DNA from: a virus
Taxonomy: Duplodnaviria > Heunggongvirae > Uroviricota > Caudoviricetes
Length of the DNA: 28,905 nt
Direction: 5' to 3' (one strand)
Virus record (IMG/VR): IMGVR_UViG_2740892258_000013
Positions 1 through 5,435 of the stretch are shown here, in pieces. Under the pieces are notes generated by a model. That model made no database searches and was not told where the DNA came from. It worked only from the letters and a program-made list of their open reading frames with translations. The position numbers and the translations under genes were made by a program. Within the stretch, counting starts at the first letter, position 1. Each line of letters begins with the position of its first letter.

Positions 1-1158
1 ATGCTCACCGTTAAGCAGATTGAAGCAGCAAAGCCGAAAGAAAAACCATACCGCCTACTCGATGGTAATGGCCTGTACCTTTATGTCCCTGTATCAGGGA
101 AAAAGGTATGGCAGCTTCGCTACAAGATTGACGGTAAGGAGAAAATCCTGACCGTCGGAAAATATCCACTTATGACTTTGCAGGAGGCAAGAGATAAAGC
201 ATGGACCGCGAGGAAAGACATCTCGGTTGGCATCGATCCGGTAAAAGCGAAAAAGGCTTCGTCTAACAACAATTCCTTTAGTGCGATTTACAAGGAATGG
301 TACGAGCACAAGAAGCAAGTCTGGTCAGTAGGCTATGCAACTGAACTTGCAAAAATGTTTGATGACGACATTTTACCTATCATCGGCGGCCTTGAAATTC
401 AGGATATTGAGCCGATGCAACTGCTGGAAGTAATCCGCAGATTTGAAGATCGCGGTGCAATGGAGCGAGCCAACAAAGCCCGCAGAAGATGCGGCGAGGT
501 TTTCCGTTACGCTATTGTCACTGGTAGGGCTAAATATAACCCGGCACCTGACCTTGCTGACGCCATGAAGGGATACCGCAAGAAGAACTTCCCGTTTCTT
601 CCTGCAGACCAGATCCCTGCATTCAACAAAGCACTGGCAACATTTTCAGGAAGTATCGTATCGCTCATTGCGACCAAAGTTTTACGCTACACAGCCCTAA
701 GAACGAAAGAGCTTCGTTCCATGCTATGGAAGAACGTCGATTTTGAAAACAGGATTATCACCATCGACGCCAGTGTGATGAAGGGACGCAAAATTCATGT
801 GGTCCCGATGTCAGACCAGGTGGTTGAACTTCTCACTACGCTAAGCTCCATCACCAAACCAGTATCAGAGTTTGTTTTTGCCGGGCGCAACGATAAGAAG
901 AAGCCAATCTGCGAGAACGCGGTTCTACTTGTGATCAAACAAATCGGCTATGAGGGTCTAGAAAGCGGTCACGGATTCAGGCATGAATTCAGCACGATTA
1001 TGAACGAGCACGAATGGCCTGCTGACGCTATTGAAGTGCAACTGGCACATGCCAACGGCGGATCTGTGCGCGGTATTTACAACCATGCTCAGTATCTCGA
1101 TAAGCGCAGAGAAATGATGCAGTGGTGGGCGGATTGGCTTGATGAGAAGGTAGAGTGA
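1..1158 (+). CDS. int: Phage integrase, tyrosine recombinase family
   Basis: 385-aa ORF starting at base 1. N-terminal arm-type motif AAKPKEKPYRLLDGNGLYLYV, catalytic-domain motif HGFRH and a C-terminal Tyr region (VRGIYNHAQY). The true start could lie at or just upstream of the window edge. Confidence 0.9.
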   Translation: MLTVKQIEAAKPKEKPYRLLDGNGLYLYVPVSGKKVWQLRYKIDGKEKILTVGKYPLMTLQEARDKAWTARKDISVGIDPVKAKKASSNNNSFSAIYKEWYEHKKQVWSVGYATELAKMFDDDILPIIGGLEIQDIEPMQLLEVIRRFEDRGAMERANKARRRCGEVFRYAIVTGRAKYNPAPDLADAMKGYRKKNFPFLPADQIPAFNKALATFSGSIVSLIATKVLRYTALRTKELRSMLWKNVDFENRIITIDASVMKGRKIHVVPMSDQVVELLTTLSSITKPVSEFVFAGRNDKKKPICENAVLLVIKQIGYEGLESGHGFRHEFSTIMNEHEWPADAIEVQLAHANGGSVRGIYNHAQYLDKRREMMQWWADWLDEKVE

Positions 1159-1397: not shown

Positions 1398-2111
1398 TTA
1401 TTGCGTGAGCTTCGCATGATAGCTGGAGCATCTCTTGTCATCACTAATTAGCTCCGCTTTATCCGTTCTTGCCCATATTATATTTCTTTTTATTATTTTT
1501 GCTGGATTACCGGCTGCTGCACACATAGATGGCACATCTTTAGTTACAATACTCCCATACCCAATGACAGATCCGCTTCCAACAGATACTCCTTTCATTA
1601 TAGAGACATTTCTCCCTACCCATACGTAACTAGATATAATGATATCTTTTGCCCAATTAATCCTTTTTTTGCTATGAATATCAAATATAGGATGCCCATC
1701 TGATGCACGCAAAATAACATCTCTTGCTATCATGCAGTCATGGCCAATTGTAACATTGCACTTATCAGTGACGACTTCAAAACCTGCACCTATTGTCGTT
1801 CTTCTACCGATAATAACTTTTGAACCTTTTGTTGCGACAATATCACCTTTAATCTTACTGTTTTTATGTATTCTTACGTAATTATTATCACCCCTAAATA
1901 TTACGGTAAGCCATCGACACTCAACATCATCTTCTATAATAAGTTTGTTATTGTTTCCATTGAACTGAACTTTATTCTCTTTGCTATTTACAAGATCTCC
2001 ACATACAAAAACATTACCTGACCCATTATCATCAACGGAAAACGAGTCTTGAGTCTTGAGTCTTGAGTCTTGAGTCTTGAGTCTTGAGTCTTGAGTCTTG
2101 AGTCTTAACAT
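1398..2111 (-). CDS. neuO: Hexapeptide-repeat O-acetyltransferase (polysialic acid O-acetyltransferase NeuO-like), phase-variable
   Basis: 237-aa ORF with left-handed beta-helix acetyltransferase signatures (IGRRTTIGAGFEV, GVSVGSGSVIGYGSIV). The N-terminus is (RLKTQDS)x3, encoded by 9 tandem AAGACTC heptads right after ATGTT. AGGA Shine-Dalgarno 7 nt upstream of the ATG. Sits in the moron position next to the tailspike, as described for CUS-3 (recalled). Confidence 0.85.
   Translation of the reverse strand: MLRLKTQDSRLKTQDSRLKTQDSFSVDDNGSGNVFVCGDLVNSKENKVQFNGNNNKLIIEDDVECRWLTVIFRGDNNYVRIHKNSKIKGDIVATKGSKVIIGRRTTIGAGFEVVTDKCNVTIGHDCMIARDVILRASDGHPIFDIHSKKRINWAKDIIISSYVWVGRNVSIMKGVSVGSGSVIGYGSIVTKDVPSMCAAAGNPAKIIKRNIIWARTDKAELISDDKRCSSYHAKLTQ
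2044..2106 (-). repeat. Heptanucleotide VNTR, 9 perfect copies of GAGTCTT (AAGACTC on the coding strand)
   Basis: Counted directly: 9 x 7 = 63 nt inside the neuO 5' coding region, keeping the ORF in frame. Confidence 0.95.
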
Positions 2112-2308
2112 ATTAGTATCCTACGTTATTTTACCACTAGTTACTTTTCTTGTCATTAAAAAGCATTTAAATTTTTATATTTAATTTCGTTGACGTCAAT
2201 GTTTTTTGCCAATGTACTTACTTCTTTATGTGATCAGTTCATATTTTTGACGCCAACGAAACATTTAGTGCTTCCCTTCTATTAAGTCTAACCTAGCTTT
2301 TATTCTTT

Positions 2309-3307
2309 CTATTTCTCTGCGCTGCCATGCTGCCTCGATATAGAATAAGAGATCAGGTCTGACCCCATTTCTCTGCGCTGCCATGCTGCCTCGATATAGA
2401 ATAAGAGATCAGGTCTGACCCCCCATCTAGATCCTGCTGGCGTTATTTCAACGCGCTCAATGATGTCTTCTATTACCATCACTGGATTATCATCCTCATC
2501 AACAATGATGCTCCCGTCATTATCAGTCAGCGGCATTTCCCTTTGGCCAGTAATGACGTCATCATATACTGCGGGATAATCGTCATAGCAAAGAAAGGCA
2601 TAGCGGCATGTTGTGCTTTCTTCTTCCATGAGTCCGTGAGAAATAAGAACATCACGAAGTTGCTGCGCGATTACACCATGATGTATCCTCGCCCCTTCTT
2701 CCCCCTTTATAGCGACAGCGTTCAGCCATTTATAAGCGATATACCTGACGTCACCCCAGGCATCCAGCAATGTTTCGTCAGGAGAGACCGGCTCTGTCTT
2801 TAATGTTCCGTCACTGGTAACCACAGGATTGGAGCCAAGATAAACTATCGAGAACCTGTTTCCCGGACCACCAAGAGCATTTACATTATCAAGATAAGGT
2901 TTAACATCTCCGTTCTCAAAAAGATGTTCGAGTGCGTTATATACCGCGCGACGTGGAGTACTGCTTCCGGAACCATGCAACGTTATCATTGCACCATCTG
3001 CTGAAGACGTTGTTTCACCGCCGCTAACGATTAATCTCTGAGCGGTAACATCATCAGACGGTACTTTCTTCGCAATAATGGCGTAATTACCCTCAAGTTT
3101 GACTTCCGCGCGAACTTGTCCTGATGTACCTGCATGGACAGTCAGTGACTGGACGGCAACATCATCTGTGAAATCAACGGGTACAGGAACCGTCCTCACG
3201 CCTGACGTCGACATAAAAGTAGGAAGCGTTCTGTTAGGAGTGGCTCCGTAGACAAAATCCCTTGAAACAAATTCTTCCTGTTTAATTTTCACCCTGAAAC
3301 AATACAA
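2309..3307 (-). CDS. Tailspike fragment: C-terminal stalk and chaperone-like region
   Basis: 332-aa ORF. Its C-terminus is altered by the 56-bp duplication at 2311-2422. Confidence 0.7.
   Translation of the reverse strand: MYCFRVKIKQEEFVSRDFVYGATPNRTLPTFMSTSGVRTVPVPVDFTDDVAVQSLTVHAGTSGQVRAEVKLEGNYAIIAKKVPSDDVTAQRLIVSGGETTSSADGAMITLHGSGSSTPRRAVYNALEHLFENGDVKPYLDNVNALGGPGNRFSIVYLGSNPVVTSDGTLKTEPVSPDETLLDAWGDVRYIAYKWLNAVAIKGEEGARIHHGVIAQQLRDVLISHGLMEEESTTCRYAFLCYDDYPAVYDDVITGQREMPLTDNDGSIIVDEDDNPVMVIEDIIERVEITPAGSRWGVRPDLLFYIEAAWQRREMGSDLISYSISRQHGSAEK
2311..2422. repeat. Exact tandem duplication, 2 x 56 bp (tailspike 3' end)
   Basis: Copy 1 is 2311-2366 and copy 2 is 2367-2422, identical by direct reading. 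56 is not a multiple of 3, so it shifts the frame. Confidence 0.95.
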
Positions 3308-3443
3308 ATCAGCCGGGTGACCATCGTGAACATAAGGATATTTTCTGTTGTTATCCCCTATGCTCCATGGGTTTAGAAAGTCTTCCCCACCGAAAATGTA
3401 GTACAGCCAGTTGTCTTTGATACAAACTGAACCAACACCAACC

Positions 3444-3555
3444 GCAGAGTTAACTATTCCGCCCTGATAAATCTGATCAGTAACATTAACCCACTCTACG
3501 CAGAGTTAACTATTCCGCCCTGATAAATCTGATCAGTAACATTAACCCACTCTAC
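3444..3555. repeat. Exact tandem duplication, 2 x 56 bp (tailspike)
   Basis: Copy 1 is 3444-3499 and copy 2 is 3500-3555, identical by direct reading. Confidence 0.95.
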
Positions 3556-3590
3556 ATTATCCAGACTCCACTCATTGACGTTAACTCTGG

Positions 3591-4766
3591 TCATAAATGT
3601 TCTTGGATAATTTCCTGCATAACGGTTATCAGGTTCTCCTCCTTCCCACTCACCAAATGCGCGCTCTTTCCTGCATAACGGTTATCAGGTTCTCCTCCTT
3701 CCCACTCACCAAATGCGCGCTCACTGCCAAAAATAATCAGCTCATCGCCAACTTTGGCAAAAGGAAGGTTTGAGTGATGAACATTATTTGGGAAGCGAAG
3801 AGAATTCCATGATGTACCTAAATCAGAGCTTCTGTGCAATGAACTACCGGGTTGAGTACTTAATGTCCCCCTGGTCGTCAGATACAGAATGCCATCATAA
3901 TATTTTACACATGGCTCAGATGCATTCGCCTCATATTCTGCAGGTATGCGTCTGCGAACAAAGCTACCAGGAGAACCGAAAGCATCAGAGAAATAGAGTA
4001 TCCCAAGCTCGCGTGGACCAATATCACCATTATGGTAGCCAACAGCAAAACTGTTATCGCTAATCGTCGCAAAACTGTGAATCTCAGTAACAGGAGTGCT
4101 TCCGTCAACAAAAGAAGGAATAGTTCCAAGACTGGTTTTTCTCCATGGTGACGAGTGAAATGATGTACCAAAACTCCAGTATCTACCCTCGTTATTCTGA
4201 TCCACATCCTGGGTATTTTGCGTCGTAACTGTAAAAGTATTTTTATCAATAACAGTAGTCACCGTCATATTCCCGGTAACACCTGTAACACCAGAGTTTG
4301 AGAAGTTGACAAAATCACCAGCAAATAATCCGTGATCAGTAATGCGAATATAAGCGACTTGCTGATTTGCTGCTTTCGTTATACCACCATAAACGCGAAG
4401 GCTGCGACTCATTGGGCGATCCCACAACTCTGCAACCTGCAGTTTATTTCCGCTCACGGTCCGCGTCTCAATTACAGCAAAAAGGCGATTTCTGACAACC
4501 CCCATACTCATGCAGTGATAGTTAACTGTGGGATAGTTTTCATGTAAATCTGTAAGCCATTCCGGCGTTGTCCAGGTCTTCCCGTCATCTCCTGAGCGAA
4601 CCCATGCAACATGGAGGTTATTTACACCATGGCGGTCTCCAGCCATAAAAGGCGCATAGATGACATTGTCATATACAAACGTTTTATCCTGCGTCCAGGC
4701 GTTGTACCACGGTGTATCTGTAATTTTAAATAACTCTCCCTGGATAAAATCTTCAGAATGTACCAC
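3591..4766 (-). CDS. Tailspike fragment: endosialidase catalytic (sialidase beta-propeller-like) region
   Basis: 391-aa ORF. Its first 19 residues duplicate the end of the upstream fragment (4622-4921) because of the 56-bp duplication at 4703-4814. Confidence 0.75.
   Translation of the reverse strand: MVHSEDFIQGELFKITDTPWYNAWTQDKTFVYDNVIYAPFMAGDRHGVNNLHVAWVRSGDDGKTWTTPEWLTDLHENYPTVNYHCMSMGVVRNRLFAVIETRTVSGNKLQVAELWDRPMSRSLRVYGGITKAANQQVAYIRITDHGLFAGDFVNFSNSGVTGVTGNMTVTTVIDKNTFTVTTQNTQDVDQNNEGRYWSFGTSFHSSPWRKTSLGTIPSFVDGSTPVTEIHSFATISDNSFAVGYHNGDIGPRELGILYFSDAFGSPGSFVRRRIPAEYEANASEPCVKYYDGILYLTTRGTLSTQPGSSLHRSSDLGTSWNSLRFPNNVHHSNLPFAKVGDELIIFGSERAFGEWEGGEPDNRYAGKSAHLVSGKEENLITVMQEIIQEHL
3611..3722. 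repeat. Exact tandem duplication, 2 x 56 bp (tailspike)
   Basis: Copy 1 is 3611-3666 and copy 2 is 3667-3722, identical by direct reading. Confidence 0.95.
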
Positions 4767-4814
4767 GGTGTATCTGTAATTTTAAATAACTCTCCCTGGA
4801 TAAAATCTTCAGAA
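4703..4814. repeat. Exact tandem duplication, 2 x 56 bp (tailspike)
   Basis: Copy 1 is 4703-4758 and copy 2 is 4759-4814, identical by direct reading. Confidence 0.95.
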
Positions 4815-4865
4815 ACATAAAAAAGAGGCTGACCCGGTATTCTCTCAAATAAAAAACGAGCATTT

Positions 4866-5435
4866 TTAAATCGACTGACATCTGGAAGATGTTGATACTT
4901 TAAAAGTAAGCCCTCGCCCATCTATCTTTTCACCACCTGTTGCAACAGAAAGTAATTCTGATAGAGCTGATGTATCATCATGAACACCATCACCAATAGC
5001 CCCCCAACCTCTTACATCATAACTGTCTCTCCATCTTGCTATCTGAAGTTTTGGGTATTTATTCGCTCCATCTGTGTCTTCTAATTGCTGCCGTAACTGA
5101 TCAGGATCATACTTCAGCACATTAGGAAAATAGAACTGCTGCGCACCATACGCATCATAAACAGCCATAGAATGGCCTTGCACGGTAACGAATTTGGCAA
5201 TCTGTCCGTTATATACCGGATATCCAGCAGCGTTAATGATTATTGGTTGCGAAACAGGAACGTGAGAACCGTCTTCATTCTCCACATAGACCTGAATCTG
5301 GTTTTCTGTATTTACAGGATCAGTGTCAATTTTACCGATATAAATTTTGCCATTGGCTACGGCTTTAAAAGAACGCGCCATAGTGAAGAGTTGCGAAGGC
5401 ATCGATACGATCACATTGGCTGTAATGTCTGTCAT
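4866..5435 (-). CDS. Tailspike fragment 1: P22 gp9-like head-binding domain plus start of the receptor-binding part
   Basis: 189-aa ORF, GGAG Shine-Dalgarno upstream; ends at a frameshift-induced stop. Confidence 0.8.

Follow-up and report, generated by a model that had tools for sequence, protein, structure and literature searches.

The window, by which we mean the whole stretch of 28,905 nucleotides that was analyzed, begins with an integrase gene. It is followed on the opposite strand by an acetyltransferase gene with a heptanucleotide repeat close to its start codon, and by an endosialidase tailspike gene. The features in this part of the window are as follows.

1-1158 (+): integrase gene (int) of CUS-3, from the ORF and the comparison with CUS-3; the window begins at its ATG.
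1310-1329 (unstranded): terminator-like GC-rich hairpin with a T-run, between the convergent int and neuO genes; a consensus match, with 2 such sites found versus 0.4 expected.
1398-2111 (-): neuO ORF as assembled, 237 aa, comprising ML, three RLKTQDS heptads and a 214-aa left-handed beta-helix O-acetyltransferase core.
2044-2106 (-): heptanucleotide VNTR (poly-psi motif) of nine perfect AAGACTC units, 63 nt, annotated at the same place in CP000711.
2119-2122 (-): putative Shine-Dalgarno-like AGGA, 7 nt upstream of the neuO ATG, a consensus match read from the sequence (...cgtAGGAtactaatATG on the minus strand).
2128-2156 (-): sigma-70 promoter-like site 17 nt upstream of the neuO ATG, with the hexamers ATGACA and TAAAAT 17 nt apart (10/12) and a TG in front of the -10 hexamer; a consensus match, in a region where the number of promoter-like sites is not above the shuffle expectation.
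2265-5435 (-): endosialidase tailspike gene, broken in contig CVOH01000123.1 by four 56-bp duplications and a T insertion at 4890.
2311-2422, 3443-3554, 3611-3722 and 4703-4814 (unstranded): exact 56-bp x2 tandem duplications, detected with Tandem Repeats Finder (TRF), all inside the tailspike gene.

The repeat tract reads as nine GAGTCTT units on the plus strand, corresponding to AAGACTC on the minus strand, both by direct reading and with TRF (period 7, 9.0 copies, 100% matches, score 126). It is exactly 63 nt long, and the periodicity is ended by a c at 2043 and an a at 2107. A search of the whole window with a three-unit pattern yielded 7 overlapping matches, all within the tract, versus 0.00 expected from 100 dinucleotide-preserving shuffles. 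The neuO ORF has its ATG at 2111-2109, starts with MLRLKTQDSRLKTQDSRLKTQDSFSVDDNG and is open as far as the stop codon. Its first repeat unit begins at nt 6, which is 5 nt past the A of the ATG and 2 nt past the start codon, the same placing as reported for neuO (PMC3046976). The tract occupies nt 6-68 of the ORF. Its first base completes the Leu2 codon, (RLKTQDS)x3 follows, and the final Ser codon is finished by the first flanking base.

Judged by its sequence, this gene is neuO, the polysialic acid O-acetyltransferase cargo gene of the P22-like prophage CUS-3 of E. coli K1. The assignment is based on the flanks, the protein match, the hexapeptide domain and the catalytic residues. The 1-kb region around the repeat, the repeat itself aside, is 100% identical to Enterobacteria phage CUS-3 (CP000711). 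The window protein is 100% identical to crystallized NeuO (PDB 3JQY) over query residues 3-237 (E=3.1e-155), and it matches the Hexapep family PF00132 (E=6.9e-11, 41.8 bits versus a cut-off of 27). Among the NCBIfam models none matched at the equivalog cut-off; the best were sugar O-acetyltransferases, all below it. The NeuO catalytic residues are His119 and Trp143 in a numbering without heptads (PMC3046976), and they are present in the 237-aa protein as His140 and Trp164, an offset of +21.

The surroundings agree with this assignment. As in CUS-3, neuO is flanked by int on one side and the endosialidase tailspike gene on the other. A tRNA-Arg gene adjoins int in the E. coli genomes N21 (NZ_CM165899.1), N54 (NZ_CM165885.1) and ZJ3920 (NZ_CP020545.1), and the source contig has the same chromosomal flank; the integration site of CUS-3 is beside the tRNA-Arg gene argW (PMC9659370). 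At the sequence level, then, the window gene has every testable defining feature of NeuO, while acetyl-CoA-dependent O-acetylation of polysialic acid by the identical protein is taken from the literature (PMC3046976, PMC13001214).

The established mechanism, with which everything seen here is consistent, is slipped-strand mispairing in replication, by which 7-nt units are gained or lost. Only copy numbers divisible by three place the acetyltransferase in frame (ON), and other numbers lead to a stop after 21-45 codons (OFF). Alleles constructed in silico with 6, 9 or 12 units encode full-length NeuO; those with 7 and 10 units stop after 21 and 28 aa, and those with 8 and 11 units after 38 and 45 aa. 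The locus has the make-up of a contingency locus: a perfect tandem repeat in the 5' coding region with a 7-nt unit that is not divisible by three, a full-length product in one of the three frame classes only, and a copy number that differs between strains with identical flanks.

Published work describes a natural range of 2-93 copies, the multiple-of-three rule, and a disordered N-terminal extension in which three units make up one RLKTQDS heptad and catalytic efficiency rises linearly with heptad number (PMC3046976). The locus is accordingly both switch and dimmer for K1 capsule O-acetylation, and nine copies as read would mean ON with three heptads, hence low activity. Variation has been recorded among strains, with 3-53 copies and 65.6% OFF in 64 complete genomes, and within a single culture of MS7163, where fragment analysis found 21 copies in 93%, 20 copies in 1.9% and 22 copies in 5.4% (PMC13001214). 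A 38-copy OFF strain gave rise to 39-copy ON colonies after four passages (PMC8653822). Transcriptional control of neuO is added by DsdC (PMC9659370).

A sequence-only reading of this DNA had described nine AAGACTC units 5 nt after the neuO ATG, coding for (RLKTQDS)x3 with the frame open, and TRF and the ORF show this to be accurate in every detail. Its identification of the gene as neuO of CUS-3 is borne out by the CP000711 flanks and PDB 3JQY, at 100% identity. Its multiple-of-three rule agrees with the in-silico alleles and is stated in PMC3046976 and PMC13001214. We found nothing that speaks against the identity of neuO or against the slipped-strand mechanism.

The origin of the window matters for the copy number. 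The window forms part of draft contig CVOH01000123.1 (GCA_001245225.1), to which it was matched via a 189-aa tailspike fragment that results from the T insertion, and its first 6 kb are found there verbatim. Its left end is exactly the int ATG. By coordinates, its right end (28905) is position 89352 of the 89,353-bp contig, in the nin region at CUS-3 position 28941. The window has the appearance of a predicted provirus segment bounded by a gene start on the left and by the contig end on the right, with ~11 kb of prophage missing. Over its entire 28.9 kb it equals CUS-3 positions 192-28941, apart from 3 SNPs, 1 inserted T, the four duplications and the repeat number.

The four 56-bp duplications all lie within 2.8 kb of the neuO repeat, the nearest ~200 nt away. 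They are confined to CVOH01000123.1 and absent from all sister loci, and of the whole collection searched a single contig encodes a tailspike fragment that depends on the duplications. A 36-nt pattern across the duplication junction had no match in viral, metagenome or GTDB genome contigs. Once the duplications are removed, the window matches CUS-3, N21 and N54 again. The duplications bear the signature of untrimmed k-1 overlaps between de Bruijn graph nodes. Since all four are 56 bp long, k would be 57, a value that comes solely from the duplications. We also considered the duplications as real biology and rejected this explanation, as it would take four events of the same length within 2.5 kb, in one contig only, with sister assemblies lacking them.

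The tailspike gene also carries markers of lineage. In the window it is split into ORFs of 189, 391 and 301/332 aa. The T insertion at 4890 shifts the frame of the CUS-3 endosialidase tailspike after 180-odd codons and is also present in N21 and N54 (annotated as 'frameshifted' there), in an ENA metagenome scaffold and in several Logan contigs. As it is found in independent assemblies, we take it for a real lineage marker. The prophage of this T-insertion lineage is probably without a functional tailspike, though neuO was kept.

Three SNPs, at 2471, 2968 and 3610, set the window apart from CUS-3, N21, N54 and ZJ3920 alike. When a paralogous tailspike copy was considered as the source of two of them, the combination of 2471T and 2968C was present in no complete genome searched, with 99.9% for the best match. 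The AT at 3556-3557 is missing in N21 and N54. At k=57, the ends of a 168-bp piece (3499-3666) predict variant sites that fall on positions 3555/3556 and 3610. This points to a bubble formed by two tailspike-like copies or alleles within the sample. In N21 and N54, a 121-nt query from the tailspike N-terminal region (4830-4950) matches two places each.

The neuO locus is present in ~158 RefSeq complete E. coli genomes, in which 5 to 60 copies lie between identical flanks. The mod-3 classes were roughly equal (20/16/21 in the first 57 complete genomes). Exactly nine copies were present in two of the ~158 genomes, ZJ3920 and APEC E18006 (NZ_CP126942.1), with a query that had been built to rank exact 9-copy loci first. 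Among the other short alleles, 8 copies occurred in 10 and 10 copies in 6 complete genomes, versus the 2 with the in-frame 9 copies; the difference could be due to clonal sampling or to counter-selection of weak ON alleles, in numbers that are too small to tell.

We then asked what a de Bruijn assembler would make of a long tract. Graphs were simulated from the 28-copy N54 locus with read-supported edges, and the shortest flank-to-flank path was followed. The resulting number of units was 8 at k=51-55, 9 at k=57-63, 11 at k=71-77, 15 at k=99-105 and 19 at k=127. Any true tract of at least nine units, walked once at k=57, would therefore assemble as nine.

On balance, we lean towards the view that the nine copies are a collapsed lower bound, with a true number of at least nine, produced by a minimal traversal of the repeat loop at k=57. 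We prefer this explanation because the prior for exactly nine copies is low (~1%), because relatives have long tracts, and because the observed number coincides with the collapse value. The closest complete relatives with the T insertion, N21 and N54, carry 44 and 28 copies, respectively, and another assembly of the T-insertion lineage has a 100-N gap inside the repeat tract.

Several observations count against a collapse. Genuine 9-copy alleles exist, not only in ZJ3920 and APEC E18006: the exact 237-aa protein is encoded on 72 contigs, including chromosome-size ones without duplication artefacts. Moreover, the in-frame allele counts in public assemblies are smooth. Exact-sequence look-ups found 18 contigs with 3 copies, 41 with 6, 72 with 9, 66 with 12, 54 with 15 and 44 with 18, and for the longer tracts 13 with 21, 8 with 24, 14 with 27 and 9 with 30. 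These counts form a smooth hump and show no peak at the numbers to which common k would reduce the tract (8, 11, 15, 19). Assemblers therefore usually break at the neuO repeat rather than collapse it, and the best explanation for the surplus of short alleles in public assemblies is that contigs break at long tracts. The many 'partial' NeuO proteins of 214-216 aa at contig ends fit such breakage. A general collapse artefact behind the frequency of 9-copy alleles in public assemblies was rejected in view of the smooth distribution. Finally, the tract in the window lacks the untrimmed-junction signature; the same faulty joining there would give 16 or 25 copies.

Further details concern allele structure and annotation. 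In GCA_964045955.1 (locus L008, 10001-10080), a 9-unit allele has AAGACTT as its first unit, ahead of 8 perfect ones; the change is synonymous and leaves the 237-aa protein unaltered. This interruption shortens the perfect tract and might stabilize the ON state. In genomes with out-of-frame tracts, PGAP annotates just a 111-aa C-terminal 'acyltransferase' fragment (WP_011478229.1), and no neuO pseudogene; in N21 and N54 this fragment lies at 2550-2885 (locus L019) and 2662-2997 (locus L020), respectively. In records annotated as 'none', the 5' part of the out-of-frame neuO is without annotation. Annotation-based surveys of gene presence will therefore misreport neuO.

A considerable, if minority, chance remains with the alternative that the source strain genuinely has a 9-copy, in-frame (ON) allele with three heptads, low activity and slower switching than the usual tracts of 14-50 copies. 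From the graph code it can be reasoned that a true 63-nt tract would be just resolvable at k=57: with read-supported edges it would be linear in the graph and would assemble unambiguously. The tract shows no duplication of the kind present at the four unresolved junctions close by, 9-copy alleles are real in other genomes, and the number falls into the published natural range (PMC3046976). However, exactly nine copies are rare (2/~158 complete genomes), the nearest relatives have 44 and 28 copies, and it would be a coincidence for the observed number to equal the collapse value for an independently inferred k. Genuine or not, the chance that the source strain was ON at all is about even, or a shade better; behind a collapsed tract, the true number would be in frame in roughly a third of cases.

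The sequence-only reading had placed the locus in the ON state in the sequenced molecule. This stands insofar as the deposited string is in frame, but that string is a short-read draft consensus and not a single molecule. For the source strain the statement does not carry over, given the k=57 artefacts ~200 nt away, the coincidence of 9 with the collapse value, and the 44 and 28 copies of the relatives. The 9-copy count says nothing reliable about the phase of the strain, and the ON reading cannot be trusted. If the nine copies were genuine, they would mark a meningitis-type K1 lineage in which a tailspike-less CUS-3 had its neuO contracted to a short, slower-switching ON allele of low activity, a scenario that we consider unlikely. 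Were it true, such a genuine short ON allele would move a phage contingency gene closer to domestication, in the role of a weak and nearly constitutive modifier of the capsule.

That the repeat might be a fixed N-terminal repeat domain of the protein and not a device for phase variation, or the ORF not neuO, has next to no probability left and is already refuted by the data: the sole point in favor is that the repeat translates into RLKTQDS heptads in this frame, whereas complete genomes show 5-60 copies in all three mod-3 classes between 100% identical flanks, out-of-frame alleles truncate the protein, the reference CUS-3 record is itself an out-of-frame 19-copy allele with no CDS annotated, and switching has been measured directly (PMC13001214, PMC8653822).

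Phase variation of neuO has been described since 2005 and is still studied in the context of phage resistance, neutrophil killing and Siglec evasion. The biology of the repeat (slipped-strand phase variation, the divisible-by-three rule, and activity that rises with the number of heptads) is already published, and the biology seen here is not new. What is new is the origin of the window in a draft contig, the k=57 artefacts, and the fact that nine is the collapse value at k=57-63. The useful point is thus a methodological one. Short-read draft contigs do not reveal the ON/OFF state of long simple-sequence contingency loci. The k-mer of the assembler can set the assembled copy number deterministically, and in one case out of three this number will look 'in frame' by accident. 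For surveys of phase state, complete long-read genomes, spanning reads or fragment analysis are preferable to draft assemblies.

Outside E. coli, the next-best solved structure by sequence is OatWY, the sialate O-acetyltransferase of Neisseria meningitidis W-135/Y (PDB 2WLC and related, E=3.7e-31), which has a left-handed beta-helix fold and a conserved active site as in NeuO (PMC3046976). The alignment with OatWY begins at query residue 46 and does not cover the heptad region of NeuO.

The CUS-3 neuO of RS218 (CP000711) is the same gene. Its repeat has the same unit and likewise begins 2 nt after the start codon, between flanks with 100% identity over 2.1 kb. The record annotates the site as 'poly(psi) domain; contains 19 copies of heptanucleotide repeat AAGACTC' of neuO, and the poly-psi VNTR of RS218 goes back to Deszo et al. 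(2005) and King et al. (2007), as cited in PMC3046976 and PMC9659370. With 19 copies the RS218 gene is out of frame (OFF) and has no CDS annotated, whereas the window contig has 9 copies and is in frame.

ZJ3920 and APEC E18006 share with the window the copy number of exactly 9, the 237-aa protein (annotated as acyltransferase) and the order int / neuO / tailspike beside tRNA-Arg. ZJ3920 represents a different CUS-3 lineage, as it is without the T insertion at 4890 and its tailspike N-terminal region diverges from 5075 onward. The closest relatives found are N21 and N54, both CSF isolates, which have the tailspike frameshift in common with the window. Over 6.9 kb they differ from the de-duplicated window by no more than 3 SNPs and a 2-nt indel. 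The neuO flanks of N21 and N54 are identical to each other, yet their tracts differ by copy number (44 versus 28), and both are out of frame.
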